Of a stretch of 64,000 bases of DNA, positions 3,833 to 57,172 are shown piece by piece. The stretch is from contig JAIEOU010000003.1 in the NCBI GenBank assembly GCA_019750255.1, positions 19,350-83,349 on the forward strand, in the 5' to 3' direction. Under the pieces are notes generated by a model, which searched no databases, was not told where the DNA came from, and was given only the letters and a program-made list of their open reading frames with translations. This DNA is from Patescibacteria group bacterium (GTDB lineage: Bacteria; Patescibacteriota; Minisyncoccia; Phycocordibacterales; UBA918). Position numbers and translations under genes: made by a program. How positions within the stretch are numbered: position 1 is the stretch's first letter; every line of letters begins with the position of its first letter.

Positions 3833-6562
3833 ATGATAAGCCGCAACGAAATCCGTGTCCGGGCCAGGGAATTTTCAAAAGAATGGGAACGTGAGGTAGA
3901 CGAGGATGCTGAAGCTAAAAGTTTTTGGGACGCTTTCTTTATGGTGTTTGGTGTTTCCCGTCGCCGCGTTGCTGCCTTTGAACACTTCGTCCACAAACAA
4001 GACGGCGGGCAAGGGTTCATAGATGTGCTGTGGCCGGGAGTAATGCTCGCCGAGCACAAGAGCCGCGGCAAGAGTTTGGACCGCGCCTTTAGCCAAGCCA
4101 AGGATTATTTTCCTGGCCTCAAAGACGCCGAGCTCCCACGGTATGTGGTCGTATCTGACTTTGCCCTTATTCGGGTCTACGATTTGGATAACGATACGGA
4201 AGTTGAGTTCTCACTTTCCGACCTCGACAAACACATCGAACTCTTTGGATTTATATCCGGCTACGAAGTGCGTAAGTACGAAGCGGAAGAAGAGGCGAGT
4301 ATAAAAGCAGCAGAGCTCATGGCGAAACTTCACGAAGCGATTGAAGTGACCGGCTATAGCGGGCACGACCTCGAAGTGTTTCTCGTGCGTATACTCTTTT
4401 GTCTCTTTGCCGATGACACCGAGATATTTGAAAAGGGGAGTTTCAGGAGGTACATCGAGCAGCGCACGAGCGAAGAAGGGAGCGACCTTGGATTTCGCCT
4501 CCTTGAACTTTTTGACGTCCTCAACACTCCCGACGCAAAGCGCCAAACCACGCTTGATGAACAGCTGTCCGAGTTCCCCTACATCAACGGCGCAATCTTT
4601 GCTGAACGAATCGGGTCAATCACCCTCGACCACAAAGCACGAGCAACTCTTCTCACGTGTTGTGCCTTTAACTGGTCGGGTATATCAGCAGCTATTTTCG
4701 GCTCACTCTTCCAGGGGGTAATGAATAAGCAAGAGCGTCGTGAACTAGGTGCTCACTATACAAGCGAGATCAATATCATGAAGGTGATTCAACCCCTTTT
4801 CCTCGATGAGCTCTACAACGAATTCGATGCCGCAAAGAAAAGCGCAAAGGCCCTCGATTCCTTCCACCAAAAACTGGCGAGCCTTACCTTCCTCGATCCA
4901 GCCTGCGGCTGTGGCAACTTCCTCGTTACCACCTATCGCGAGCTTCGTCGTCTCGAAATTCAGGTACTGTTGAAAAAGCGGAAGCACAATACGAACACTC
5001 TCCTCGCCTTCGGAGCCGGTGAACTTTCGCGCCTTCATGTAAACCAGTTTTACGGAATTGAGATTGAGGAGTTTCCTGCACTCGTTGCTCGTACTGCCAT
5101 GTACCTGGCCGACCACCAAATGACGCGTGAACTGCAAAAAGAGTTCGGGCAAGAGAAGGCCCGTATCCCACTACAGGAGCCGGCAACCATTGTGCACGGG
5201 AACGCTCTTACCATTGAGTGGGCAGAAGTAATTGCTCCGGAGAAACTTTCGTATATTATCGGCAACCCACCGTTTCTGGGCCAGACCTATCAAAGCAAAC
5301 AGCAGAAAGAAGAAGTCGCAAAGGTACTGTCGGGAATAAAGAAAACAGGCACGCTCGATTTCGTATCTGCGTGGTATGGGAAAGCTGCCGATCTAATGAA
5401 GCAAAATCCTAAGATACAGACTGCACTAGTATCAACTAATTCCATCACCCAAGGTGAGCAGGTGGGTATTCTTTGGAAGTATCTACTGGAGAATGGGGTA
5501 AAAATTAACTTCGCTCACCAGACTTTCCGCTGGACGAACGACGCAAAGGGCAAGGCGGCGGTACACTGCGTCATTGTCGGTTTTGCACTTTTCGATAAAC
5601 CTACCAAATGGCTTTATCTATACTCGAATATAGACGGTGAGGGAACGGAGGTAGGGGTTAAAAACATAAATCCATATCTTGTTGATGGACCAAATATTCT
5701 TCTTGAGAGCCGAAGCAAGCCGGTTTGTAAAGCACCAAAAATGATTCGAGGCAGCCAACCAACGGACGGGGGCAACCTTTTACTCACACAAGAAGAAAAG
5801 GACACACTTGTCATGAATGACCCATTGGTTGCAAAATTCATACGACCATTCTTGATGGGTAACGAATTTATTAATAATATTAAACGTTACTGTCTATGGC
5901 TCAAAGATTGTTCGCCAAATGAACTCAAGGAAATGCCTGAAGTAATGAGACGAATAGAATCCGTTCGTAAAGTTAGACTAGCAAGTAAGAAAGCAGCGAC
6001 CCAAAAGTTAGCGTCTTTACCATTTCTTTTTGGAGAAATTAGAACATCTGAATCATGTTACCTTGCAGTACCAACTGTCTCATCAGAGAACAGAAGTTAT
6101 ATTCCAATCGGATTTTTGCCCCCAGATGTTATTGCGGGAAATAAAATATATTTCATACCCAACGCAAATATTTTTAACTTTGGAATCCTGACTTCAAAGA
6201 TGCACATGGTCTGGACTCGATACACATGTGGCCGGCTGAAAAGTGATTACAACTACTCTAATAAAATTGTCTACAACAACTTCCCGTGGCCAGGGTGTGG
6301 TGCAAATGTCACTGACCTAAGTGTAGAAGCGAAAGAAAAAATCGAAGCCGCAGCGCAAGCAGTACTCGATGCTCGTGCCCAGTTCCCAAACTCATCCCTC
6401 GCCGATCTCTACGATCCACGCACCATGCCACCAGTACTCGTAAAAGCTCACGCCGCCCTCGACCGTGCCGTCGATGCCGCCTACAGCTACCGCGACACTG
6501 GCCTCGACGCCGACCGCATTGCTTTCTTGTTTGAGCGTTACCAAAAAATTATTAATTCTTAA
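3833..6562 (+). CDS. MmeI-family type IIL restriction-modification enzyme (fused endonuclease, N6-adenine methyltransferase and target-recognition domain)
   Basis: The N-terminus matches MmeI (MISRNEIRVRAREFSKEWE...AKSFWDAFFMVFGV...). A PD-ExK-like motif GFIDVLWPGVMLAEHK is present. MTase motif I is FLDPACGCGNFL and motif IV is GNPPFLG. Length is 909 aa versus MmeI at about 919 aa. Confidence 0.85.
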   Translation: MISRNEIRVRAREFSKEWEREVDEDAEAKSFWDAFFMVFGVSRRRVAAFEHFVHKQDGGQGFIDVLWPGVMLAEHKSRGKSLDRAFSQAKDYFPGLKDAELPRYVVVSDFALIRVYDLDNDTEVEFSLSDLDKHIELFGFISGYEVRKYEAEEEASIKAAELMAKLHEAIEVTGYSGHDLEVFLVRILFCLFADDTEIFEKGSFRRYIEQRTSEEGSDLGFRLLELFDVLNTPDAKRQTTLDEQLSEFPYINGAIFAERIGSITLDHKARATLLTCCAFNWSGISAAIFGSLFQGVMNKQERRELGAHYTSEINIMKVIQPLFLDELYNEFDAAKKSAKALDSFHQKLASLTFLDPACGCGNFLVTTYRELRRLEIQVLLKKRKHNTNTLLAFGAGELSRLHVNQFYGIEIEEFPALVARTAMYLADHQMTRELQKEFGQEKARIPLQEPATIVHGNALTIEWAEVIAPEKLSYIIGNPPFLGQTYQSKQQKEEVAKVLSGIKKTGTLDFVSAWYGKAADLMKQNPKIQTALVSTNSITQGEQVGILWKYLLENGVKINFAHQTFRWTNDAKGKAAVHCVIVGFALFDKPTKWLYLYSNIDGEGTEVGVKNINPYLVDGPNILLESRSKPVCKAPKMIRGSQPTDGGNLLLTQEEKDTLVMNDPLVAKFIRPFLMGNEFINNIKRYCLWLKDCSPNELKEMPEVMRRIESVRKVRLASKKAATQKLASLPFLFGEIRTSESCYLAVPTVSSENRSYIPIGFLPPDVIAGNKIYFIPNANIFNFGILTSKMHMVWTRYTCGRLKSDYNYSNKIVYNNFPWPGCGANVTDLSVEAKEKIEAAAQAVLDARAQFPNSSLADLYDPRTMPPVLVKAHAALDRAVDAAYSYRDTGLDADRIAFLFERYQKIINS

Positions 6563-6660: not shown

Positions 6661-7419
6661 CTACTTTCGTAGCGACGCAATCAGGGCATCGAGCTTCTCG
6701 TTTAAGTCACGCTCTTTGCGATCACTCTCTGGCTGATTGATGGCGCTCGAGGCCACGCCGATAATAATGCTGAGGAGCACAAACACCGTGGTGACAATAA
6801 AGCCGATGAAGAATAGGCCGGCCCAGGGATACACACTCATGAGTGGGCGCACTACATCGCTCCACGCATCCAGGGTCATGATTTGAAAAAGTGTAAAGAG
6901 GGCGTTGTCGAGATCGGCGAAGTGTTCCGGTGAAGCCGCGCGAAAGAATTTTACCGACAGCACGGCACAAACATACAAAATCACCGACAGCACACACATC
7001 ACGGCAAAGCTGCCCATGAGCGCCCGACCAATACCAGAGAGCACATCTCGGAACGAGGGTACAACACTAAGGAGCCGAAGAATACGAACTGCTCGCAAAG
7101 CCGATACGTTACCAAGTCCCGCAATGCCAAGGAGGGGAAGAAGCGTCACGAACACTACAGAGAAATCAAACCAGTTCCAACCGCTGCGGAAAAAACTGAG
7201 GCGAAAAACACTGATACGAAGTACGAGCTCGCTCACAAAGACAGCGAGGAACAGTTTATCAATCACAAGTAATGTTGGGCCGATACTGGTCATGACGGCA
7301 GGGTAGGTCTCGAGCGCGAGCGTAATCGCATTAAGCACGATTGCGGTGATGATGAATCGCTCAAACCACACATTTGAAACCAACGCTTGGAAAAAAGATG
7401 TCTTATTCATGCCCGACAT
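6661..7419 (-). CDS. Ion-transport protein, voltage-gated cation channel family (NaChBac/CavBac-like 6-TM)
   Basis: S4-like segment LRAVRILRLLSVVPSFRDV with regularly spaced Arg. Pore loop FTLFQIMTLDAWSDV followed by an S6 helix. Multiple TM helices. Confidence 0.7.
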   Translation of the reverse strand: MSGMNKTSFFQALVSNVWFERFIITAIVLNAITLALETYPAVMTSIGPTLLVIDKLFLAVFVSELVLRISVFRLSFFRSGWNWFDFSVVFVTLLPLLGIAGLGNVSALRAVRILRLLSVVPSFRDVLSGIGRALMGSFAVMCVLSVILYVCAVLSVKFFRAASPEHFADLDNALFTLFQIMTLDAWSDVVRPLMSVYPWAGLFFIGFIVTTVFVLLSIIIGVASSAINQPESDRKERDLNEKLDALIASLRK

Positions 7420-8030
7420 GGTACGACACCAGGTGGAATTCGACTAGTGCGACGATATGGGAAATGGTATTCAGAGAGACCTCACTGTTTTCGTGTGTAA
7501 TGAAACGCGAATTCCGACAGCTGGGGGAAGGTGCCACGGGACCACAGTACGCATGTACCGTATGCGGCCGTTAGTTCATTTTGGTCTGAGAGCGTACCAC
7601 TCGTCCGCCGCTATGTGTTCCATGGCTTGCCGAAGTCTCCAGCATTAGCCCATTACATATATACGTATAGGCGCAAAAGCCCTGGTATCTAAGCGAAGTA
7701 ACGTGAGGCGTGCTCCAAGCCCAAGAAACGTCCGTTCACACAAACCGTTACCTAACGTGGTTACACACCAAGCGCTGGCCGTGGCCGCGGAACAGTGTTT
7801 CATGCGAATACCGGAACAGCACTCTGACCTGCGTAACCATGATGACCGCGGGGTCAAAACGAGGGGGTCTGTTGACAGGGTCGTCAGTATTGCGTGTGGC
7901 TTGCTTTTTTAAATAAAGTATGCTATAGTTCTTGCAACCTTCGCGGTTATTATTGGCACGTAGACCTCTGCTCCACTTGTGTGGGCGTATCTAATAGGAA
8001 AGCGTGCCGCGATCTCATTTACACACATAT

Positions 8031-8297
8031 ATGTTAACGAAACGAGTAAAAGAAAACGTGCTTAAAAACACTCGCCGTCACGATAGTGATACGGGTTCAC
8101 CAGAGGCACAAGTAGCCCTCCTCACTCGTCAGATTGAAGAGCTCTCTACCCACCTCAAAAAGCACAAGAAGGATTTCCACTCACGTCGTGGTCTCCTCCA
8201 GATCGTGGCCGACCGCCGCAAGCAGCTCAATTACCTCGAGAAGAAAGATGAAAAAGCCTACAAGGCACTGATCAAGAAGCTCGGTATCAAGCGCTAA
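8031..8297 (+). CDS. rpsO: 30S ribosomal protein S15
   Basis: MLTKRVKENVLKNTRRHDSDTGSPEAQVALLTRQIEELSTHLKKHKKDFHSRRGLL... at 88 aa (internal Met of ORF 8004..8297). A TTGACA...TGcTATAGT promoter lies at about 7865-7930. Confidence 0.9.
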   Translation: MLTKRVKENVLKNTRRHDSDTGSPEAQVALLTRQIEELSTHLKKHKKDFHSRRGLLQIVADRRKQLNYLEKKDEKAYKALIKKLGIKR

Positions 8298-8305
8298 CCA
8301 GCGAC

Positions 8306-8413
8306 CCTAAAGCCCCATCTACTTTGTTGCCTACGTCGCTCGTGCCGCTCACCGTATCATCACAGGTACGGCTCGGACACTCGCTCGTCGGCGCCTCGTA
8401 GCTGGGGCTTTAT
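8306..8413 (+). promoter_or_regulatory. Structured RNA element immediately 3' of rpsO (long-range stem plus inner hairpins); candidate RNase III/terminator/leader structure
   Basis: taaagccccatctac (8306-8320) pairs with gtagctggggcttta (8399-8413) in 14 of 15 positions. There is an inner hairpin ccgtatcatcacaggtacgg. Confidence 0.3.
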
Positions 8414-8517
8414 CGTACGCTTGTTTCTGCGACCTGGAGCAACGGAAACATTTGGAGTATAGTAAGTACGCAGCGGAGATTTTAATAAACGAAGGACGTA
8501 ATTTACATAATAACTAT

Positions 8518-9150
8518 ATGGGAGTCATCAGACACCCCGATCAACGTGTAGCGATTTTAATTGATACACAGAACCTCTACCACAGTGCGAAGAACCTCTA
8601 CAAGTCCAAAGTAAATTTTGGAGCAGTGGTGAAGCAAGCGCTCGGAGGTCGCAAACTTATTCGCGCCGTGTCGTACGTGGTGAATACCGAAAGTGGGGAA
8701 GAGCAACCATTCTTTGAAGCCCTCGAGAAAGTCGGCATTGAAATTAAAACGAAGGACCTCCAAATCTTTTACGGGGGTGCGAAGAAAGCCGACTGGGATG
8801 TTGGTCTCGCGGTTGACGCCATCAAGCTTGCGCAAAAAGTTGACGCTATTATCTTAGCCTCTGGCGATGGTGACTTTGTCCCGATGGTGGAATACGTAAA
8901 GAGCCAGGGCTGCCAAGTTGAAGCAATTTCGTTTGGTCGTTCCTCATCATCAAAGTTGCGTGAAGTTGTTGACGACTTCATCGATATGGATGAACACCCT
9001 AGTGACTTCCTCATCAGCTACAAAGGTGGCCCGCGCCGAGCTTCATTGGCAGGTCGCACCGAAGGCAGAGGTGAGGGGTCGAGCCGCGCCAAGAATGAGC
9101 TCCGCAACGAAATCCAAAAAGTAGTTGGAACGGACACCGATAATCTTTAG
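8518..9150 (+). CDS. NYN-domain (LabA/YacP-like PIN-fold) putative ribonuclease
   Basis: MGVIRHPDQRVAILIDTQNLYHSAKNLY...AIILASGDGDFVPMVEYVKSQGCQVEAISF is typical of NYN/LabA. The start is taken at an internal ATG of ORF 8452..9150. Confidence 0.6.
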   Translation: MGVIRHPDQRVAILIDTQNLYHSAKNLYKSKVNFGAVVKQALGGRKLIRAVSYVVNTESGEEQPFFEALEKVGIEIKTKDLQIFYGGAKKADWDVGLAVDAIKLAQKVDAIILASGDGDFVPMVEYVKSQGCQVEAISFGRSSSSKLREVVDDFIDMDEHPSDFLISYKGGPRRASLAGRTEGRGEGSSRAKNELRNEIQKVVGTDTDNL

Positions 9151-9232
9151 GAGCAAAAATTTAAAACCGCCGCTATGGTAGGCTTGTCGCGGACTGTTAC
9201 ATCCCTAAAACGCACATGAGAAGGAAGGTGTG

Positions 9233-10096
9233 ATGCCGTTAATTCCTCGACCTGCCTACCGCCTCACAAAAGAGATAACCATTGTCGGCCATGATTTATT
9301 TGGTCGTCGAGCCAGTGTCGAATTAATTCCACATGAACTTTCCGGTATATATGTGGATGTTGGTAAAGACGAGCCGGTTCTCGTTACCCCCGAGAATCTC
9401 ACCAGCAGTCGGTGCTCACTACACTTCACCTGTGATGGGTTCAAGATTCGAAACATCGGACCACTGCTCGCACTGCGCTGGTGGGTTGACGGCTTCACCA
9501 TCAGGACCGCAACCGGGTGGCTGCCATTCGATGGTACCGCCCAGGTGTTTCTCGGGGCAGTACACCAGAGTGCCGCAGTAGCCGAAGAAGGCACTCTGCT
9601 GCCATTCGGTCTGCCACAGCCCTGGTGCCTCGGCGAAGCCACGGTGCACGCATGGATATTCATTTCAGAATCGGCTGAGTCTGATACCGACCTCAAGCTT
9701 ACTGTCGGTTACGACCGACTTAGGCACGCACACGGGGCAATGGCCATAAGCCATGAAAGGAAATTTTCCCGCGATGACTTTCCCGACATCGCGTGCGCAC
9801 GAGGCTTTGGCTACCCCCAGTCTCTGCGTCCACTGAGTGCCCTGGCTGCACGCAGTGGCCTCTGGCGACATCACCACCACTTCCTCTGGACAGACGCGCA
9901 AAGAGACGCCACCACCTGGGAGCTCGTAGTGGACGAGGCTCTTCGGCACCGTGAGCTTAACCTCCTCGCATGCCTGGCCAGCGCACTACCGCCGGGATAC
10001 TTTCCCATCGGAACGGTCACGTCCCTCAACGGCAGTCTCGCCAAGGAACTCAATATGGCAGCTCTACTGCACCGGATGGGACGAGCCCGAACTTGA
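9233..10096 (+). CDS. LpxC-like (UDP-3-O-acyl-GlcNAc deacetylase fold) protein, probably non-canonical
   Basis: WLPFDGTAQVFLGAV matches the LpxC E(V/I)PIMDGSAxPF motif. The N-terminal ITIVGHDLFGRRASVELIP aligns with LpxC GVGLHTGKKVTLTLRP. The region is about 62% GC versus a local value of about 50%. A strong SD aaggaagg precedes the ATG. Confidence 0.4.
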   Translation: MPLIPRPAYRLTKEITIVGHDLFGRRASVELIPHELSGIYVDVGKDEPVLVTPENLTSSRCSLHFTCDGFKIRNIGPLLALRWWVDGFTIRTATGWLPFDGTAQVFLGAVHQSAAVAEEGTLLPFGLPQPWCLGEATVHAWIFISESAESDTDLKLTVGYDRLRHAHGAMAISHERKFSRDDFPDIACARGFGYPQSLRPLSALAARSGLWRHHHHFLWTDAQRDATTWELVVDEALRHRELNLLACLASALPPGYFPIGTVTSLNGSLAKELNMAALLHRMGRART

Positions 10097-10205
10097 TGGA
10101 CTCCACTCTCGCGAAACAACAGTACACCGCCTGCGTTGCCCGAGTGGCACTGCAGGCGGTCGTTTGTTATGCTCGTAGTGTTATTCATATTTTATTGTCG
10201 GGTGG

Positions 10206-10263
10206 CAGGTGCGCGCGTACAGAGAGCGCACAATAGTCTGGCGCTTTTAAACGCGCGCACCTG
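10206..10263 (+). promoter_or_regulatory. pnp 5'-leader long hairpin (candidate RNase III autoregulatory site)
   Basis: A 13-bp stem caggtgcgcgcgt/acgcgcgcacctg encloses an inner hairpin, about 20 nt upstream of the pnp ATG. Confidence 0.35.
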
Positions 10264-10280
10264 CACCGAACAAACGTTTC

Positions 10281-12395
10281 ATGCAGAAAAAAACCTACGA
10301 GATTGAAGTGGGCGGGAAGCTACTGACAGCTGAATTCAACGACCTAGCTCCACAGGCGAGCGGCTCAGTGATGCTGCGCTACGGCGAGACCGTGGTTCTC
10401 GTGACGGCAGTGATGGGGCAGAAGAATGTACCGATGCCTTACTTTCCTCTCTCGGTAGAGTTTGAAGAAAAGTTTTATGCTGCCGGTGCAATCTTGGGTA
10501 GTCGCTTTGTTCGTCGTGAAGGGAAGCCGAGCGACGAGGCGGTCTTGTCGGCCCGAATTGTCGACCGGACCATTAGACCATTGTTTCCCGCTCACCTCCG
10601 CAAAGAGGTACAGGTGGTGGTGATGGTGCTGGCCATTGGTGAGGAAGACCCCGATCTGCTTGGCATCATCGGTGCCTCGCTGGCGCTCGGTGTTTCGGAT
10701 ATTCCGTGGATTGGTCCGGTTGCGGCGGCCCGAGTGACCCGCGCGGTTCATAGCGACGTGCTGGAGATTAATGCAAACTACAGCAGCCGCACTGAAGGGG
10801 CGACCGATTTTGAAGTGCTGGCGTGTGGCCGCTCCGGCAGTATTAATATGATTGAAACTTCCGCACGGGAGATGGATGAAGCGACGATCATCGCCGCGCT
10901 TGAGGCCGCTGCACCGGTACATGCTGCGCTTGAGGCTTGGCAGAAAAGTATTATTGCCGAGCGTGGTGTACCAAAGCGAGCTCACGCCGAGCCGCAATTT
11001 CCCGAGTTGCTTACGGAACACTTCGCTACGGCATTTCACGACCGTCTTTACAGCACCCTATTCTCGGGCACTACCGGCAAGAGTCACCTCTACACACTGA
11101 AAGACGAATTTGTTGCCAGTTGCGCTACCTCCCTCGCCGACCTCACCCCCGCACTGTGCGCAGACTTCTTCGAACACCAGCTTGACCAACTCATCCACAA
11201 GGGGGCGGTGGAGGAAGGAAAACGTGCTGACGGTCGACCGCTCGATGCCGTGCGTGAGATTTTTGCACAAGCCGGCGGCGTTTCTCCGGTACTGCATGGA
11301 AGTGGAATTTTCTACCGCGGCGAAACGCACCTCTTTTCTGCTCTGACCCTCGGGGGACCTGATGCAGCGCAACTCGTCGACACCATGGAAGAGCGTGACG
11401 CTAAAAAACGCTTCATGCACCACTACAACTTCCCGCCTTTTTCGGTGGGAGAGGTGGGTAAGGTGGGTGGTCAAAACCGCCGCATGATTGGGCACGGCGC
11501 ACTGGCGGAGAAGGCACTTGCCCCAGTGATTCCAAAGGCAGCCGACTTTCCGTATACGATTCGACTGGTCTCGGAAACCCTCTCGAGTAACGGATCAAGT
11601 TCCATGGCTTCGGTCTGTGCCTCCACTCTCGCATTAATGGACGGCGGAGTCCCTATTACACGACCCGTTGCGGGTATCGCTTCGGGTGTCATGTTCCACA
11701 ATGGAAAGTATGCGCTCCTTACTGACATTCAAGGACCAGAAGACGAATATGGCGACATGGACTTCAAGGTTGCTGGAACCAGCAACGGTATCACCGCCAT
11801 GCAAATGGACGTAAAAATAGAGGGTGTTCCAATTGCCATCCTTGGTGAAGCGTTAGAGAAGGCCCGCCTAGCCCGGCTAGCAATTCTCGCGGCCATGACC
11901 ACGGCAATCGCTGCCCCACGACGAACCATCTCGCCCCGTGCCCCAGAGATTGTGACACTACAGATACTCCCTGAACAAATAGGTCTCGTGATTGGCGGGG
12001 GTGGTAAGACTATTAACAGTATAAAGGCTGATGCTGGTGTAGAAGAAATTACTATCGAAGAAGATGGCCAGATATTTATAACTGGACGACGTGGTACGGC
12101 CGGTATTGCCGCGGACCGCATCCGCGCCCTGACTCGTCGGTACACTGTCGGAGAGCGAGTGAGCGCCACCATAACTAAACTCGCACCGTTTGGGGCGTTT
12201 GCTAAGATTGATGCGTATAATGACGGACTCATCCATATATCGGAAATTGCCGACGTGCACGTTGACACCGTCGAGGGACTTCTCATCGTTGGCGAAACCC
12301 TCCCGGTGATTATTTCCAAGGTTGAAAATGGAAAGATTGGTCTTTCTATTAAGCAGGCAGATGCGCAGTTTTACACCACGCGCACCCAACCTTAG
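10281..12395 (+). CDS. pnp: Polyribonucleotide nucleotidyltransferase (PNPase)
   Basis: 704 aa with two RNase PH domains, a KH domain (GGGGKTINSIK) and a C-terminal S1 domain. Confidence 0.95.
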   Translation: MQKKTYEIEVGGKLLTAEFNDLAPQASGSVMLRYGETVVLVTAVMGQKNVPMPYFPLSVEFEEKFYAAGAILGSRFVRREGKPSDEAVLSARIVDRTIRPLFPAHLRKEVQVVVMVLAIGEEDPDLLGIIGASLALGVSDIPWIGPVAAARVTRAVHSDVLEINANYSSRTEGATDFEVLACGRSGSINMIETSAREMDEATIIAALEAAAPVHAALEAWQKSIIAERGVPKRAHAEPQFPELLTEHFATAFHDRLYSTLFSGTTGKSHLYTLKDEFVASCATSLADLTPALCADFFEHQLDQLIHKGAVEEGKRADGRPLDAVREIFAQAGGVSPVLHGSGIFYRGETHLFSALTLGGPDAAQLVDTMEERDAKKRFMHHYNFPPFSVGEVGKVGGQNRRMIGHGALAEKALAPVIPKAADFPYTIRLVSETLSSNGSSSMASVCASTLALMDGGVPITRPVAGIASGVMFHNGKYALLTDIQGPEDEYGDMDFKVAGTSNGITAMQMDVKIEGVPIAILGEALEKARLARLAILAAMTTAIAAPRRTISPRAPEIVTLQILPEQIGLVIGGGGKTINSIKADAGVEEITIEEDGQIFITGRRGTAGIAADRIRALTRRYTVGERVSATITKLAPFGAFAKIDAYNDGLIHISEIADVHVDTVEGLLIVGETLPVIISKVENGKIGLSIKQADAQFYTTRTQP

Positions 12396-12454
12396 CTTCC
12401 GATTATTAACCTGCGTACGCCCCGACCGAGCCAAAGCGTGCGATACTAGAAGCA

Positions 12455-14164
12455 ATGGCCGAGTCGAAACCAACGATGCTCCCGCGAGTTCGTACCTTTG
12501 CGAGCGATCTAGAAAATGAACGCAAAAAGCGCGGCCTTGCCGCGCCCGTTGACGATGCGGCCTCGAAACCAAGCGCACCCGCTGATCCGACAAAAGTCCC
12601 CGTGCCGACCCCCCGCAAAGTCCCTACTCCTGTCGCCATCCCACCAGTTAGAACGGCAGAAGCTGGACCAAAGCCAATCAGTCATATCGTAGCGGCCGCA
12701 CCACGACCCACGAGCGTATCAGCTGCAGTACTGGCCACTCGCGCCGACGAAATGAAGAAAGAATCTGATGCGCGGCCTACTTCAGTCCCCTCGTTTCATG
12801 AGCTAATGAAACGAAGTGGGAAACCCCACGCTTCGCCCTCAGTAACTCCCGAACGCGGGGGTGTCATGGGCATTACCATAACCAATGATGAAAGTGGCGC
12901 CACCATCATCACCGACACCAAGGCTGATCGCTTTAAAGTTGCTCCCAGTATTTTTATATCAATAAAAAAATGGTGGGCAAAAAACCAGGCTGACCGCAAG
13001 GCCCGTCGGGCTCCTAAGTACGTTGTGCCCGAAACAGATCGTCGAAAGGGTATCATCCAACAAGCTACCTCACATAGCGGAAAGGCGATTACAGATGACC
13101 GCGCCCAGCTGCGTGACCAGGTTCTCCGACGCAATACACAGAAGGAACACGAGCCCGACACCACGAAGACGGGAAGCACCGAGGCCGGGTCTCGCCCGAG
13201 CGCACCACCTGATGATGGGGGAGTCGTAAACGTACAGGTAACACCAAAGCAACGTGGTGAGGAACGGCCACGACCAGTGCTGCCGCCGGTTGAGGTTCCT
13301 GCAGTTGTTCGTGCACCACTACCTCCACCCCCGCCACTGTCCATCCCTGTCGCCGTACCGCCGCCGGTTGTCGCTGCTGCCCCTTTGCGACCGACCCAAG
13401 AAGCGACGCCTATCACTGAAAAAAAAGTAACCGCAACCAGTGCCCCGGTGATTGCAATGAGGCAAGAGGCAGTAGGGCCAGAGACTCAGCTGCGGCCAAG
13501 CGCACCAACTGGTCGCCTTACCACTAACCTTCTCTCTGGCAGCGTGGTCGCTTTGATTGTATTTATTGCGGTCGGTGGCGTTGGCGTATACCGCTTCCTG
13601 AACACACCACCACCCCCGCCACCACCGGTATATGAGGGAGTGCTACTGAGCGCCCCGACGCTAAAAATTTCACTTCCGATACTCGACCGAGCCGCATTCA
13701 TGCAGTCTCTCGCAATTGCGAGCGATACCCGGTCCGTACCGGTCATTGAACTCTTCTTCATTAACGACACGGTTGTGGTACCATCTGCCGACCTCTTGTC
13801 ACTTTTCAGTCCCACCATTAATCAGAACTTGGCTCAAAATGTACGTTCAGTGGTCTTTGGTTGGTACAACAAAGACATCCCCTTTATGGTGCTTGATATC
13901 GCCGACCGCTCGAGCGTCTGGGGCGGACTCCTTAAAGAAGAAGCCAGGCTGCAAAGCACCCTAGCTCCGTTCTTCACTTTCCCAACCCCGCTTGATGGGG
14001 GGTTCATCGATCGTAAAATTAGCATCTACGACATCCGCCTCCTCGTCGACAAAACTGGCAACGAGCACCTCGCCTACAGTTTCATAAATGACAACACGGT
14101 GATTATCACTAAAAATCACGAGACGCTCTTGTTACTAGCTACCCTCGCAGGTGCCGGGAAGTAG
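12455..14164 (+). CDS. Hypothetical proline-rich single-pass membrane protein
   Basis: Long Pro/Ala-rich N-terminal region, a TM helix LLSGSVVALIVFIAVGGVGVYRFL, then a PPPPPPP run and a C-terminal globular domain. A leaderless-type promoter (gatact 7 nt upstream of the ATG) precedes it. Confidence 0.4.
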   Translation: MAESKPTMLPRVRTFASDLENERKKRGLAAPVDDAASKPSAPADPTKVPVPTPRKVPTPVAIPPVRTAEAGPKPISHIVAAAPRPTSVSAAVLATRADEMKKESDARPTSVPSFHELMKRSGKPHASPSVTPERGGVMGITITNDESGATIITDTKADRFKVAPSIFISIKKWWAKNQADRKARRAPKYVVPETDRRKGIIQQATSHSGKAITDDRAQLRDQVLRRNTQKEHEPDTTKTGSTEAGSRPSAPPDDGGVVNVQVTPKQRGEERPRPVLPPVEVPAVVRAPLPPPPPLSIPVAVPPPVVAAAPLRPTQEATPITEKKVTATSAPVIAMRQEAVGPETQLRPSAPTGRLTTNLLSGSVVALIVFIAVGGVGVYRFLNTPPPPPPPVYEGVLLSAPTLKISLPILDRAAFMQSLAIASDTRSVPVIELFFINDTVVVPSADLLSLFSPTINQNLAQNVRSVVFGWYNKDIPFMVLDIADRSSVWGGLLKEEARLQSTLAPFFTFPTPLDGGFIDRKISIYDIRLLVDKTGNEHLAYSFINDNTVIITKNHETLLLLATLAGAGK

Positions 14165-51043: not shown

Positions 51044-51529
51044 ATGATGCCGAATCGCTTTGTCATCCTCCACAATGTTCGCAGCGCGCACAATGTCGGG
51101 GCGATTTTTCGGACTGCCGATGCTGCGGGGGTTAGTGCCGTGTATCTGTGCGGCTACACCCCGACGCCGATTGATCGCTTTGGAAGACCAAATGAGAAGC
51201 TCGCTAAAACGGCCCTGGGTGCTGCTACCACCATGACATGGGAACACCACACCGAAACCACGGCTTTGGTCACTAAACTAAGAAGTGAGGGGGTGTACGT
51301 GGTCGCTGTAGAGCAAACCGAACAATCTGTCTCGCTGTTTAAAGCGACTATTCCAAACGACCGACCGGTAGCGTTTGTGCTCGGAAATGAAGTGCTGGGT
51401 GTACCCACGGAGGTCTGTGCGGCGGTAGATAGGGTTGTTGAGCTCCCTATGCTGGGTGAGAAGGAGTCGCTCAACGTGGCCGTCACTACCGGTATTGTTT
51501 TGTACCACGACCTGGAGCATCGCGTCTAA
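51044..51529 (+). CDS. SpoU/TrmH-family RNA 2'-O-methyltransferase (TrmL-like minimal SPOUT)
   Basis: HNVGAIFRTADAAG and LGNEVLGV...ESLNVAVTTGIVLY motifs. 161 aa. Confidence 0.75.
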   Translation: MMPNRFVILHNVRSAHNVGAIFRTADAAGVSAVYLCGYTPTPIDRFGRPNEKLAKTALGAATTMTWEHHTETTALVTKLRSEGVYVVAVEQTEQSVSLFKATIPNDRPVAFVLGNEVLGVPTEVCAAVDRVVELPMLGEKESLNVAVTTGIVLYHDLEHRV

Positions 51530-52797
51530 AGTCGGGCCAGTTCCTGCTGTACCACCTCAGCGTCACTCCATGGTTCCTTGGTATTATCGGGCCCCATGAT
51601 ATAGGGGTCGGTACCTTTGCCGCTAATGAGGACATGACCACCGTCGGCGCAGGCTTCAAGCGCGCTGCGGATAGCGGCGCGGCGGTCCATAATAATTTCG
51701 AGCTTCTGTTTATTCAGAATCCCTTTTTCCATGTCGTTAACAATCTTGCGCGGGTCCTCGTCGTAGGGATCTTCGTTCGTAAGGATAATACGCTCACAGT
51801 AGCGGTCGGCAATGCCGCCCATTTCCGGGCGCTTCCAGGTGTCGCGCCCACCACCAGTGTTGCCAAGGACACACACTTTCGGGGAATCTTTAAATGCTTG
51901 GTAGAGTTTCTCCAGAGAGTCGGGAGTGTGGGCGTAATCAACAACGGCAGTGACCCGTTTGCCCTCGCGGGTGGTGGTAGAAAACTGTTCAACCCGTCCG
52001 GCAATCGGCGGGGTGTCGTGGAGGGCGCGCTCAATGATTGAGAGCGAGACCCCAAGAGCACGAGTAAGGGTGATAGCAGCGAGCACATTGTAGACATTGA
52101 AGAGACCAATGAGCGGTACGCGCAGAGTAGTGTTGCCAATCACGAGGCTTGAGCCGTCCTTATGGAGGGTGTAGAGCGAGAGGTCGCGAAGAGAATAGGA
52201 AAGCGGGTGCTCAATTGGGAACTTAAGAAAGTCAGCCCCGTGCTCGTCGTCGACGTTCGCGACAATGTAGCGCGGTCGCTTGCTGCCGGTGGCCACGCGC
52301 GCTGCGATTGAGAGTTTGGCATTTTTGTAGTTTTCAAACGAACCGTGGGATTCGATGTGTTCGGGGGAGAGGTTGGTAAATACGAGGGCGTCGATATCCA
52401 GAAACCGGTGACGGTACTGCTTGGCTCCTTCAGAGGTCATCTCGACCACGGCGTGAGTACAGCCAGCGGCGACCGCGCGCGCGAGAAAGTGCTGGACGAA
52501 GAAGCGACCAGGCATGGTCATCTTAAACAGGTTGCGCTCAATCGTGTCACCAATCTTAAACTGGATGGTGGAGAGGGACGCCACCTTCTTTCCGTCTGCT
52601 TCAAGGATGCGGGCGATGATTTCGGTGGTCGATGATTTACCTTTGGTTCCGGTAACACCGATGAGTATGAGTCTGCGGCTCGGGTGACGAAAGCGTACGG
52701 CGGCCACATAAGCCATCACGTAATGGTAGTAGGGTTGAATAGCGGTAAAAATACGGCGCGGTAAAAATTTTCTCACAGCGTACAAAAGGTGTTCCAT
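51526..52797 (-). CDS. Mur ligase family protein (MurE-like, lacking the N-terminal domain)
   Basis: Walker-like GVTGTKGKSSTT, NVYNVLAA, and DYAHTPDSL in the C-terminal domain. 423 aa. Confidence 0.6.
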   Translation of the reverse strand: MEHLLYAVRKFLPRRIFTAIQPYYHYVMAYVAAVRFRHPSRRLILIGVTGTKGKSSTTEIIARILEADGKKVASLSTIQFKIGDTIERNLFKMTMPGRFFVQHFLARAVAAGCTHAVVEMTSEGAKQYRHRFLDIDALVFTNLSPEHIESHGSFENYKNAKLSIAARVATGSKRPRYIVANVDDEHGADFLKFPIEHPLSYSLRDLSLYTLHKDGSSLVIGNTTLRVPLIGLFNVYNVLAAITLTRALGVSLSIIERALHDTPPIAGRVEQFSTTTREGKRVTAVVDYAHTPDSLEKLYQAFKDSPKVCVLGNTGGGRDTWKRPEMGGIADRYCERIILTNEDPYDEDPRKIVNDMEKGILNKQKLEIIMDRRAAIRSALEACADGGHVLISGKGTDPYIMGPDNTKEPWSDAEVVQQELARL

Positions 52798-55444: not shown

Positions 55445-56308
55445 TTACGGATTACACCACTGACACTCTCCAGGTTCAGCCGAGTTTTTATTTTCTATGG
55501 GTTGGGTTTCTTGATAACTACATTTTTTACAACAACGTACTGTTTCTTTTACCAAATCGGTGGCTAACCCACAGCCATTACAAGGCAATCCCTTAACTAC
55601 ATCAGTAATAACAAAACCAGGAGTAGTGCATTTTGGGCATATACTTTTGCAGTTTTTTATGAGGTCAAGGGTAGCTTGCTTGATACCGTCCATTCGCTTT
55701 GGGCAACGGTGGGCTCGCATATCTGTTTCGATAAAAACAGACTTGGTGCTCCATTTTAATAAAAGCTTTTCAGACATTGTCCGCAAGTCGTCCTCTGTAG
55801 TAATTTCCTTGTAGATGTGTCTACTGCTCGTTTCTGACTGCCTCAAAATAACTCCTTGTTTTGGAAAACCCCACGAGCAAGCGACATCCACAGCTTCTTC
55901 GGGAGTATGTACAATTTGACTTCGAACTTGTGAGTTACTGTTACGGAAATGCCCGACAATTTCCAAATCATTTTTGATATCAATTAACACTACAATTTCA
56001 AGGTTACTTTGGACAAAAGGAATTGTAGGATGATTGCCGAAGCTGCCTTCGCTAGAAAACCCTAAATCCATCCCTGTTAGCATCATTGCTGCTTGAGCTT
56101 TTTTTCGAGCAGCTTCAAGTTGATTACCCGCCCGCTTTATATCTCTTGTAAACGTACCAAAGCGGTCAGTATTAAAATCGTGAGGAACTGTAATGGTAAT
56201 ACCGAGTCCCTCTTTTAATATAGGGGAAATAACACTTTCCTTATTATGCATTGTAGCCAGAACACCCGTTCTTTTTTCCCAATCCCCAATAATGTCCGTT
56301 GATGGCAT
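55445..56308 (-). CDS. Hypothetical protein with C-terminal Cys-rich (multi-CxxC) region, carried on the islet
   Basis: 287 aa. The C-terminal 80 aa contain CPKRM, CKSICPKC, CNGC, CCKKC and CQWC. AT-rich codon usage. Confidence 0.45.
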   Translation of the reverse strand: MPSTDIIGDWEKRTGVLATMHNKESVISPILKEGLGITITVPHDFNTDRFGTFTRDIKRAGNQLEAARKKAQAAMMLTGMDLGFSSEGSFGNHPTIPFVQSNLEIVVLIDIKNDLEIVGHFRNSNSQVRSQIVHTPEEAVDVACSWGFPKQGVILRQSETSSRHIYKEITTEDDLRTMSEKLLLKWSTKSVFIETDMRAHRCPKRMDGIKQATLDLIKNCKSICPKCTTPGFVITDVVKGLPCNGCGLATDLVKETVRCCKKCSYQETQPIENKNSAEPGECQWCNP

Positions 56309-57082: not shown

Positions 57083-57172
57083 TGGCGGAGGATGTGGGAT
57101 TCGAACCCACGAGACCTTTTACAGTCTGGCGGTTTAGTAAACCGCTGCTTTCAACCACTCAGCCAATCCTCC
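57083..57172 (-). tRNA. tRNA-Ser-type (long variable arm, encoded CCA) with apparent anticodon ACU
   Basis: Manual fold: acceptor GGAGGAT/ATCCTCC, anticodon stem GCGGT/ACCGC, loop TTACTAA, 18-nt variable arm, T-arm GTGGGTTCGAATCCCAC, and 3' GCCA. Confidence 0.6.

Follow-up and report, generated by a model that had tools for sequence, protein, structure and literature searches.

The region between rpsO and pnp in the window (the whole 64-kb stretch of DNA that was analysed) is probably an rpsO-NYN-pnp RNA-metabolism cluster typical of Patescibacteria (Paceibacteria/Kaiserbacteria-like), to which one accessory gene was added late. The distance between rpsO and pnp is 1983 nt, as was approximately given (2 kb) in an earlier note on this DNA, and two genes are located within it, one encoding a NYN/LabA-family putative ribonuclease and one, ORF288, encoding a 287-aa protein of LpxC fold. 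The earlier note regarded both genes as interrupting the operon. Results of our analysis bear this out for the LpxC-like gene, which is a late arrival, but not for the NYN gene, which is ancestral. The features of the region are as follows.

7925-8033, forward strand: rpsO promoter-proximal 5' leader, candidate S15 autoregulatory leader (82-87% DNA identity with the related loci L083, L093, and L094)
8034-8297, forward strand: rpsO, ribosomal protein S15, 87 aa (PF00312, 1.9e-31; TIGR00952, 1e-31)
8308-8413, forward strand: long, imperfect hairpin behind rpsO with UUUAUCGU after it; predicted terminator/processing hairpin of this gene (-54.4 kcal/mol, z = -5.8)
8458-8511, forward strand: predicted NYN promoter region (promoter scan; TATAGT at 8458-8463 conserved)
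8518-9150, forward strand: NYN/LabA-family putative Mg-dependent ribonuclease, 210 aa (PF01936, 2.2e-33; COG1432-type)
9151-9232, forward strand: NYN-ORF288 spacer with no stable structure or terminator (fold z = +1.84)
9233-10096, forward strand: ORF288, divergent LpxC-fold protein, 287 aa (family profile and predicted structure)
10126-10175, forward strand: hairpin A with TTTGTTATGCTCG at 10163-10175, predicted NYN(-ORF288) intrinsic terminator (z = -4.7; inverted repeat I2)
10205-10264, forward strand: hairpin B of the pnp 5' leader, with a 15-bp outer and an 8-bp inner stem (inverted repeat I1)
10281-12395, forward strand: pnp, polynucleotide phosphorylase, 704 aa (NF008805, 3.4e-214; two RNase_PH domains, KH and S1 domains)

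The NYN gene as an ancestral resident of the cluster

The assignment of the first intervening gene to the NYN family, proposed in the earlier note, is confirmed by a PF01936 match of 116.2 bits (cut-off 24.2) that covers domain positions 1-145 of 145. In the alignment with VPA0982 (PDB 2qip; 1.9e-23), the acidic metal-binding motifs D-x-x-N (IDTQN), DWDVG, and SGDGDF correspond to each other. The protein comprises a core of about 160 aa followed by a tail rich in R, G, E, and K. Its homologues number more than 8000 at E <= 1e-5, and the best 120 of these are 71-100% identical to it.

In a sample of 80 PNPase-anchored related Patescibacteria loci, the NYN gene is present between rpsO and pnp in 69, with the same order and strand in all 69. 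It is better conserved than PNPase in each of these loci and better than S15 in 57 of them (mean identities of 63.7% for NYN, 59.0% for rpsO, and 51.7% for pnp). The gap between rpsO and NYN has a median of 123 nt; that between NYN and pnp is shorter than 350 nt in 47 of the 69 loci, and in some of them is reduced to 5-18 nt or replaced by a 4-nt overlap. The order persists across lineages whose PNPase identity falls to 44-67%. Among the exceptions, rpsO adjoins pnp and NYN is absent in locus L079, while four loci with sufficient upstream sequence lack both genes. The GC content of the NYN gene (48% for the longer ORF at 8452-9150) is unremarkable. Since the rpsO-NYN-pnp order is clade-wide, the NYN gene is not an insert; its place between rpsO and pnp is ancestral, and its sequence is very strongly conserved.

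The NYN-pnp spacer, in turn, is a permissive slot. In 21 of 69 loci (about 30%), it is 650-4200 nt long and filled by unrelated genes on both strands, encoding in various relatives an alpha/beta hydrolase, a NUDIX protein and a PRPP synthetase, a KAS III, a HAD protein and an S49 peptidase, a TrpR-like protein, a DUF805 protein, and many ORFans. It provides a small example of a permissive intergenic site within a conserved cluster that gathers accessory genes.

Transcription signals and RNA hairpins

Two structured RNA elements described in the earlier note, the hairpin following rpsO and that of the pnp leader, are real, as indicated by the folding z-score of the former and by the perfect arms and compensatory pairs of the latter. 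A search of Rfam with positions 7000-13000 gave nothing at E <= 1, and with the whole window it gave tRNAs only; thus, these hairpins belong to no curated family.

The consensus fold of the rpsO leader consists of 27 pairs, with one compensatory change. The tip of the post-rpsO hairpin (8393-8408) coincides with a terminator-scan match, and its counterparts are a homologous long hairpin in L093 (z = -9.0) and, in the corresponding location of L083, a short GC hairpin. In the NYN promoter region, the candidate TTAATA-18-CATAAT at 8482-8511 ends 6 nt before the NYN ATG, which is a leaderless-type arrangement, and GTATAGTA is conserved together with 50 nt downstream of it in L083 and L093. The NYN-ORF288 spacer contains the conserved CTATGGTAGGCTT, with a -10-like TATGGT (9174-9179), and the Shine-Dalgarno (SD) sequence GAAGGAAGG at 9220-9228; an intrinsic terminator is present in this spacer in L083 and absent from it in the window.

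The arms of hairpin A are located at 10126-10140 and 10146-10160, and its region overlaps a -10-like TATGCT for pnp. At this position L083, L089, and L093 have a different, perfect GC stem (z from -5.4 to -8.1), which in L089 and L093 stands directly after the NYN stop codon, while the 13-mer TTTGTTATGCTCG is exactly the same in all four lineages. This second strong hairpin was missed in the earlier note. Hairpin B has 14-nt arms (10205-10218 and 10251-10264) that are 100% complementary, and the fold of 10090-10290 has a z-score of -6.4. Comparison of three sequences (window, L083, and L089) indicates 23 pairs in hairpin B, with 4 compensatory changes and 2 broken cells; L093 is devoid of this hairpin.

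The predicted succession of signals would comprise the conserved leader of rpsO and the long terminator hairpin behind this gene, one or more -10 boxes specific for NYN, the GC-rich terminator hairpin A overlapping the conserved TATGCT box, and the covarying leader hairpin B ahead of pnp. Each gene seems to be under the control of its own promoter, all promoters and terminators being predictions.

Origin and lost active site of the LpxC-like gene

The LpxC-like gene is missing from all 80 loci and from the close relatives L089, L093, and L099, in which NYN directly adjoins pnp; the only closer relative that has it is L083, where its product is 44% identical to that of ORF288. Apart from the loci fetched by querying members of its family, it is restricted to the window, L001, and L083-L088. 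Five other family members (L082 and L095-L098) are encoded in five unrelated contexts, with no NYN neighbour. Contigs of equal length (12334 and 4857 nt) raised the possibility that the family members P0135 and P0142 are encoded together with NYN homologues; however, L099 (4857 nt) has no LpxC-like gene, and the genes listed for the 12334-nt contig end at NYN. The metagenome scan with P0126 revealed one locus, and that with A5 no relative. While the related genomes show an ancestral arrangement in the case of NYN, they do not in the case of the LpxC-like gene.

The NYN-ORF288 spacers of the window and L083 are homologous (local score of 39 vs. a shuffle maximum of 29), which points to a single insertion. 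The gene would have been inserted once, in the subclade of the window and L083, between the NYN stop codon and the NYN terminator, with its own SD. It may have been gained and then lost or gained later; either history is compatible with the data because the topology of the window, L083, and L089 is unsettled (PNPase identities of 83.8, 85.4, and 86.0%). Duplication of a terminator-promoter unit was considered as a mechanism of this insertion and rejected, as its scores of 25-34 are not significant in relation to shuffle maxima of 34-42. Searches revealed no direct repeats flanking ORF288, no integrase remnant upstream of rpsO, and no repeats or mobile-element genes at the flanks of the NYN and ORF288 pair.

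The earlier note postulated horizontal acquisition of this gene on the basis of its composition and translation signal. The former argument was overstated: the GC content of ORF288 is 57.1% (GC3 of 58.1%) rather than about 62%. The 56 ORFs of the window average 51.0 +/- 3.6%, so that ORF288 exceeds them by only about 1.7 sd, and its value is near those of pnp (54.8%) and of the two genes that follow. The latter holds, as anti-SD pairing of -6 kcal/mol or stronger occurs at 7 of 54 crude gene starts, among which ORF288 ranks second (-9.7 kcal/mol). A late arrival is indicated by the strong SD and by the absence of the gene from the 80 loci and the three close relatives.

The family of ORF288 could be found only by an exhaustive HMMER search (1.84 billion representatives), which gave 63 matches, the best being P0122 (44%). 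A word-indexed homology search returned ORF288 alone, and a profile search with A1 in a word-indexed 5.8-billion database returned seven proteins. ORF288 itself has no match in Pfam or NCBIfam at E <= 0.1 and none at E <= 1, while 39 of 40 family members match PF03331 (best 7.3e-16). The family profile matches the LpxC of Aquifex aeolicus (PDB 1p42) at E = 1.6e-18. The AlphaFold2 (AF2) model of ORF288 obtained with the family alignment has a pLDDT of 89.3 and a pTM of 0.90 (pLDDT of 34 for a single sequence), and the top 50 Foldseek matches of this model in PDB are all LpxC structures (TM 0.68-0.75, E of about 1e-14). The assignment made in the earlier note passed both of these checks. The LpxC two-domain beta-alpha-alpha-beta sandwich fold of ORF288 is thereby supported, although the AF2 confidence stems from the family alignment and is no proof that this degenerate copy folds.

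Mapping by profile alignment on A. aeolicus residues E73/H74, H226/D230, and H253 indicates that five of six positions of ORF288 that are catalytic or, in the active site, invariant within the family are replaced in comparison with its family (E76G, H77P, D243N, H269L, and D272E) and only H239 is kept. The Zn triad (H74, H226, and D230 in A. aeolicus) corresponds to P77, H239, and N243, which leaves one of three ligands, while the general base E73 and the catalytic H253 correspond to G76 and L269; other members keep this E and H in 97%. In total, 15 of 35 family-conserved positions are lost in ORF288 and at most 7 in any other of the 40 members. Retained are H239, R240, and many structural residues. 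Two further family members, P0129 and P0147, are independently devoid of catalytic residues. With these active-site residues replaced, ORF288 cannot act as a Zn-dependent deacetylase. The remaining members of the family, in which the Zn triad and acid/base residues are normally kept, probably function as amidohydrolases, with an N-acetylated sugar or glycolipid as substrate. Genomes of the CPR have been reported to be devoid of lipid A synthesis, lacking lpxC and kdsA (PMC5220378), and no lpxA, lpxD, lpxB, or kds genes are present among the scanned genes of the 64-kb window. The occurrence of a sparse LpxC-like family in bacteria that are believed to have no lipid A, with a catalytically dead copy here, calls for caution in automated annotation.

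We lean towards the view that ORF288 is a maintained non-catalytic protein, i.e., a pseudoenzyme, since its 287-codon frame is open and its fold-defining residues are largely kept. That it is a young relic heading to decay is a serious possibility, to which we give somewhat less weight than to an even chance. The choice between these two readings is drawn from a single genome and one further contig of 1033 nt, identical to it, that came from a different run. Random substitutions would bring an in-frame stop with a probability of 0.77 (50 substitutions) or 0.94 (100 substitutions). The pN of 0.36 is well under the pS of 0.75, which is saturated, so dN/dS cannot be used. Of the six catalytic positions, five are lost, compared with 10 of the 29 remaining conserved ones (Fisher p = 0.064), and the acceleration of the gene on the window branch (29 vs. 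17 sites, p = 0.10) is not significant.

A broader form of the decay explanation, in which ORF288 is a functionless, intact-looking pseudogene and the rpsO-NYN-pnp order is ordinary synteny devoid of functional coupling, appears unlikely, albeit worth consideration. It is consistent with the position of ORF288 as the most degenerate of the 40 family members, the loss of its full set of key catalytic residues and of the Pfam match, the dispensability of the gene in the sister lineages L089, L093, and L099, and the tolerance of the NYN-pnp spacer to arbitrary genes in either orientation, which implies that adjacency need not mean co-function. However, the frame has stayed open where 50-100 neutral substitutions would almost surely have closed it, the SD and start codon are still present, pN is low, non-catalytic conserved positions have been kept more often than catalytic ones, and the survival of the gene order, with overlaps or short gaps, through the divergence of PNPase exceeds typical synteny inertia.

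It is rather improbable that ORF288 is an enzyme or ligand-binding protein of altered chemistry, with another metal site or a function of UDP-sugar/acyl sensor or regulator that may act on NYN or PNPase. Its confidently predicted fold, the retention of H239, R240, and many structural residues, and the independent losses in P0129 and P0147, suggestive of a recurrent non-catalytic niche, are in favour of this possibility, as is the absence from the window of the NYN terminator of L083, which makes co-transcription of ORF288 with NYN probable. Nevertheless, there is no positive sign of a new active site, no second set of conserved residues is visible with the one close homologue available, and in L083 a terminator lies between NYN and the intact orthologue, which indicates that the coupling is not ancestral.

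The proposal of the earlier note that a contiguous rpsO-pnp operon was broken when NYN and the LpxC-like gene were acquired horizontally, as a toxin- or defence-like module, can practically be dismissed: despite a partial match of NYN to PADLOC PDLC01154 (1.4e-14), which is at the level of the NYN domain only, weak PHROG matches, the strong SD and somewhat raised GC of ORF288, and the adjacency of the two genes, which no terminator separates in the window, NYN lies between rpsO and pnp in 69 of 80 relatives, exceeds both of these genes in conservation, and is near-universal in the clade without its neighbour, the pair co-occurs in the window and L083 only, five other family members have no NYN neighbour, ORF288 and its relatives (P0122 included) have no PADLOC or PHROG match, the pair is unflanked by repeats or mobile-element genes, and the catalytic residues of ORF288 are lost. 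The same separation of the two genes, each of which mostly occurs without the other, contradicts the other suggestion of that note, that they constitute one RNA-processing module.

Putative roles and comparison with known systems

The deep linkage of NYN and PNPase suggests a housekeeping role of this nuclease family in RNA decay or processing. According to a survey of the PIN superfamily from 2017, the nuclease activity of bacterial PF01936 NYN proteins has never been demonstrated and their function is uncharacterised (PMC5499597). The deep, near-universal linkage of rpsO and pnp to a member of this very large family, seen in one of the major uncultivated radiations of bacteria, leads to a testable prediction. 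In these organisms, whose set of RNases is reduced, NYN would be a partner of PNPase in the decay or processing of RNA.

In E. coli, an endonucleolytic cut in the pnp leader passes the RNA to PNPase. By analogy with this logic, the putative housekeeping, metal-dependent endoribonuclease NYN could pass its products to PNPase or process the rpsO and pnp transcripts. We propose, tentatively and with confidence well short of even, that in Paceibacteria-type Patescibacteria the main endoribonuclease with a housekeeping function is NYN, which would join PNPase in a minimal 'degradosome' and/or cut the structured rpsO and pnp transcripts. Such a role would explain why NYN has stayed between rpsO and pnp and evolved more slowly than either neighbour. 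In the predicted partnership, the R/G-rich tail of NYN is possibly the site of contact. More speculatively, the dead LpxC-fold protein may have been recruited in this lineage to modulate the NYN-PNPase pair without catalysis. Co-transcription of NYN and pnp is not required, since their spacer tolerates opposite-strand genes, and their linkage could be partly historical.

The family of ORF288 shares with LpxC (PF03331; 1p42 and 4mqy) the two-domain fold (TM 0.70-0.75) and the length, its profile aligns from end to end, and its members retain the E-H, H-x-x-x-D, and G-H motifs. It differs from LpxC in having its own GWPH and W-P motifs, a replacement of the second Asp of DLIGDL, and non-lpx genomic contexts in organisms reported to be devoid of lipid A synthesis (PMC5220378). 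ORF288 itself has G-P, H-x-x-x-N, and S-L in place of these three motifs and does not match any LpxC HMM. As in known pseudoenzymes, the fold and the open frame are kept in spite of replacements in the active site, although the dead state is known here from one genome and an early pseudogene is equally possible.

The NYN protein resembles other NYN/LabA-like proteins (PF01936, COG1432, and 2qip) in its full-length domain match and acidic motifs. What distinguishes it is that its gene is a core gene, present in a single copy, conserved to an extreme degree, and fixed beside rpsO and pnp, and that the protein carries a short R/G-rich tail, with no OST-HTH or other partner domain.

The E. coli rpsO-pnp operon is characterised by the terminator t1, a leader hairpin cut by RNase III, and autoregulation by PNPase. 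The location of rpsO upstream of pnp on the same strand, the terminator-like hairpin following rpsO, and a long, covarying pnp-leader hairpin just upstream of the start codon are common to that operon and the cluster described here. The leader hairpin of the window has neither sequence nor an Rfam family in common with the enterobacterial one and is absent in L093, and the promoters seem separate. Unlike the E. coli operon, most of this clade has a conserved NYN gene between rpsO and pnp.

Gene order and neighbourhood of the rpsO, NYN and pnp genes

The region, from a Patescibacteria MAG, carries the rpsO-NYN-pnp cluster typical of its clade, joined late by one degenerate passenger of LpxC fold, ORF288. 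What the earlier note observed largely stands, and half of its interpretation is wrong. The genes are as follows:

8034-8297, rpsO, encoding S15 (1.9e-31)
8518-9150, NYN-domain gene (PF01936, 2.2e-33)
9233-10096, ORF288, 287 aa, without Pfam or NCBIfam match
10281-12395, pnp (3.4e-214)

The distance from the rpsO stop to the pnp start is 1983 nt, in agreement with the 2 kb estimated previously. The ORF288 protein is identical to the NCBI hypothetical protein K2Q16_00935 [Patescibacteria group bacterium], and the nearest PNPase loci are those of Kaiserbacteria and other Paceibacteria.

Among 80 loci fetched with PNPase as an anchor from GTDB genomes, one per species, the order rpsO, NYN, pnp on one strand was found by tblastn in 69. 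In these, rpsO and NYN are separated by a median of 123 nt, and the NYN-pnp gap is below 350 nt in 47, some being as short as 6-18 nt or replaced by a 4-nt overlap. Of the three proteins, NYN shows the strongest conservation, with a mean identity to the window protein of 63.7% (S15, 59.0%; PNPase, 51.7%), exceeding that of PNPase in 69/69 loci and that of S15 in 57/69. The exceptions include locus L079, where pnp directly abuts rpsO, and four loci with sufficient upstream sequence in which neither rpsO nor NYN is present. The earlier note, which regarded NYN as an insert splitting rpsO from pnp, had itself named the presence of both intervening genes there, at native GC content, in all related genomes as the sign of an ancestral arrangement; with NYN in place in 69 of 80 relatives, the NYN half of that reading is refuted, and the gene is ancestral and not inserted.

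More than 8000 homologues of NYN were retrieved in a database search (E <= 1e-5), with identities of 71-100% among the 120 best listed. The only relative with a solved structure, 2qip, aligns over the whole core (1.9e-23), and the acidic motifs D-x-x-N, DWDVG and SGDGDF are intact. The NYN protein is probably a housekeeping endoribonuclease linked to PNPase. A survey of the PIN superfamily (PMC5499597) describes bacterial PF01936 proteins as unstudied in function, with gene neighbourhoods that hint at a role in RNA processing. No paper treating rpsO, pnp and NYN jointly was found in the literature searched, and the deep NYN-PNPase linkage is the useful lead here.

Upstream of rpsO, positions 3833-6562 encode a 909 aa MmeI-family type IIG restriction-modification enzyme with all five MmeI Pfam domains, whose GC content falls to 36-42% in the 3' part (5600-6400). 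In the related locus L093 an integrase gene lies instead between the PG-binding gene and rpsO, so this region is also variable. The divergent gene at 6661-7419 (-) encodes an ion channel of the single-domain, voltage-gated type (PF00520, 4.2e-37); a homologous Ion_trans gene occupies the equivalent place in L099 (552-1322, -), and is thus a neighbour common to at least one more distant relative. In the approximately 450 nt between the channel gene and the rpsO promoter (7420-7900), neither a convincing ORF nor an Rfam or tRNA match was found, and none of the fetched relatives has similar DNA. The gene following pnp (12455-14164) encodes a 569-aa Pro/Ala/Val-rich protein matching neither Pfam nor PHROG; it is syntenic in close relatives (L083, 4570-6303; L093, 12912-14597) and fast-evolving (57% and 48% identity where PNPase shows 84% and 77%), and DksA/TraR zinc-finger and ComM/Mg-chelatase-like genes lie 3' of it.

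RNA elements and initiation signals

The following elements were assigned, promoters, terminators and processing sites being predictions throughout:

7925-8033, rpsO 5' leader of ~110 nt, 82-87% identical in relatives, folding into two stems
8308-8413, hairpin after rpsO (-54.4 kcal/mol, z = -5.8), followed by UUUAU
8458-8463, TATAGT, conserved, and 8482-8511, TTAATA-18-CATAAT, predicted NYN promoter upstream of the ATG
10126-10160, hairpin A, terminator-like, 3' of ORF288 (z = -4.7)
10205-10264, hairpin B, pnp leader, 23 pairs

The rpsO leader, whose DNA is more conserved among relatives than many coding regions, has no match in Rfam, S15-leader families included, and could represent an S15 autoregulatory leader not described before. 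Both structured elements of the earlier note are real: the hairpin after rpsO has a long homolog in L093 (z = -9.0) and a short counterpart in L083, and hairpin B shows four compensatory double-change pairs and two broken cells across the window, L083 and L089, being absent in L093.

Hairpin A had been overlooked previously. At its position, L083, L089 and L093 carry differing perfect GC stems (z = -5.4 to -8.1), located directly 3' of the NYN stop in L089 and L093. In the window and all three relatives, the stem precedes the invariant TTTGTTATGCTCG, within which lies a -10-like TATGCT. Hairpin A probably terminates the NYN(-ORF288) transcript, and pnp transcription would start at the TATGCT box and carry a regulatory leader hairpin. 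No stable structure was found in the NYN-ORF288 spacer of the window (fold z = +1.84), and a textbook terminator is predicted in that of L083.

Across the window, a -10-like TANNNT hexamer begins 10-17 nt upstream of the start codon at 18 of 54 crude gene starts (~10% expected), e.g., 14182, 25887, 28769, 51526-52797(-), 55445-56308(-) and 57791, and an SD-like match precedes just 7 of the 54, which suggests that leaderless or SD-independent initiation is widespread in this genome. At 57083-57172 (-), beside tRNA-Ser(TGA), ARAGORN predicts a tRNA-Ser whose ACT anticodon is unusual for bacteria; a tRNA at this site is confirmed by Rfam.

LpxC fold and lost catalytic residues of ORF288

While a word-indexed search returned nothing beyond ORF288 itself, an exhaustive HMMER search of 1.84 billion representatives recovered 63 proteins (260-300 aa), the closest being P0122, the ortholog encoded in L083 (44% identity; others 22-39%). 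Pfam LpxC is matched by 39 of 40 aligned family members (best 7.3e-16), ORF288 being the sole exception. The LpxC-like assignment nevertheless holds: the family profile aligns end to end with A. aeolicus LpxC (1.6e-18), and with the AF2 model of ORF288 built from the family alignment (pLDDT 89.3, pTM 0.90) the top 50 Foldseek matches in PDB are all LpxC (TM 0.68-0.75).

In the profile alignment, the family motifs EHLLxLR, HRxLDxLGAL and GGHxxD fall on LpxC E73/H74, H226/D230 and H253, respectively, known from LpxC structural studies as the general base, Zn triad and catalytic His. ORF288 has G76-P77, H239...N243 and S268-L269...E272 at these positions and lacks the general base, the catalytic His and two of three Zn ligands; it is LpxC-like but dead. 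It deviates at 15 of 35 positions common to at least 80% of other members (next worst member, 7). Catalytic residues are also lost in P0129 and P0147.

Arrival and fate of ORF288

The family HMM matched no six-frame ORF in the 80 PNPase-anchored loci. Among the closest relatives, collected via NYN, L083 (NYN 95%, PNPase 84%) has the order rpsO-NYN-LpxC-like-pnp, with intact motifs in P0122, and pnp directly follows NYN in L089 (94%, 85%), L093/L094 (90%, 77%) and L099 (80%, 68%). The spacer separating NYN from the LpxC-like gene is homologous in the window and L083 (local score 39 vs. shuffle maximum 29), which argues for one insertion, not two. The state of L089 may reflect loss or earlier branching; mutual PNPase identities of 83.8, 85.4 and 86.0% for the window, L083 and L089 fit either. 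Neither direct repeats nor mobile-element genes were found flanking ORF288.

The distribution of this gene supports a late acquisition. Composition supports a foreign origin weakly: the GC content is 57.1% (GC3 58.1%) against 51.0 +/- 3.6% (GC3 51.9 +/- 5.4%) for 56 window ORFs and 54.8% for pnp, and the ~62% reported previously is reached only in local 400-nt windows. The translation signal is the better argument, as the strong SD noted in this SD-poor genome ranks second of 54 gene starts (-9.7 kcal/mol), only seven of which reach -6 kcal/mol or better in anti-SD pairing. The L083 ortholog is preceded by SD-like GGGAG.

The NYN-pnp spacer measures 650-4200 nt in 21 of 69 loci and holds unrelated genes on either strand: alpha/beta hydrolase, NUDIX with PRPP synthetase, KAS III-like enzyme, HAD hydrolase with S49 peptidase, TrpR-like protein, DUF805, NAGPA-like protein and many ORFans. 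ORF288 is one further occupant of this permissive slot.

We lean towards ORF288 being a maintained non-catalytic protein. Its reading frame, start codon and SD are all intact, and simulated neutral substitutions introduce an in-frame stop with P = 0.77 (50 hits) or 0.94 (100). Losses affect 5 of 6 catalytic vs. 10 of 29 other conserved positions (Fisher p = 0.064). The LpxC-like pair of the window and L083 gives pS 0.75 and a pN of only 0.36, with dS saturated (1.1-2.7 for neighbouring genes). The window branch is modestly, not significantly, the faster (29 vs. 17 sites, p = 0.10). ORF288 may instead be a young relic. A 1033-nt contig from the independent run DRR851322 shows 100% DNA identity to the window.

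The toxin or defence-like module earlier envisaged for the NYN-LpxC-like pair was rejected, as five other family members lie in five differing neighbourhoods, none with NYN, and PADLOC gave a partial match to the NYN domain only, with zero matches for ORF288 or its relatives, and PHROGs zero for ORF288. These neighbourhoods comprise glycosyltransferases, UDP-glucose dehydrogenase, epimerase and RelB/ParE (L082); a solute symporter; HSP20 and VanW; a methyltransferase; and FtsH, SmpB, RecG and malic enzyme. In L082, the LpxC-like P0187 (7789-8349) adjoins the RelB/ParE toxin-antitoxin pair and is divergent from the glycosyltransferase, UDP-glucose dehydrogenase and epimerase block, the only context to hint that the intact family may act on a sugar nucleotide. 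CPR genomes have been described as lacking lpxC and kdsA (PMC5220378). The intact LpxC-like family probably deacetylates some N-acetylated envelope precursor in bacteria devoid of lipid A.
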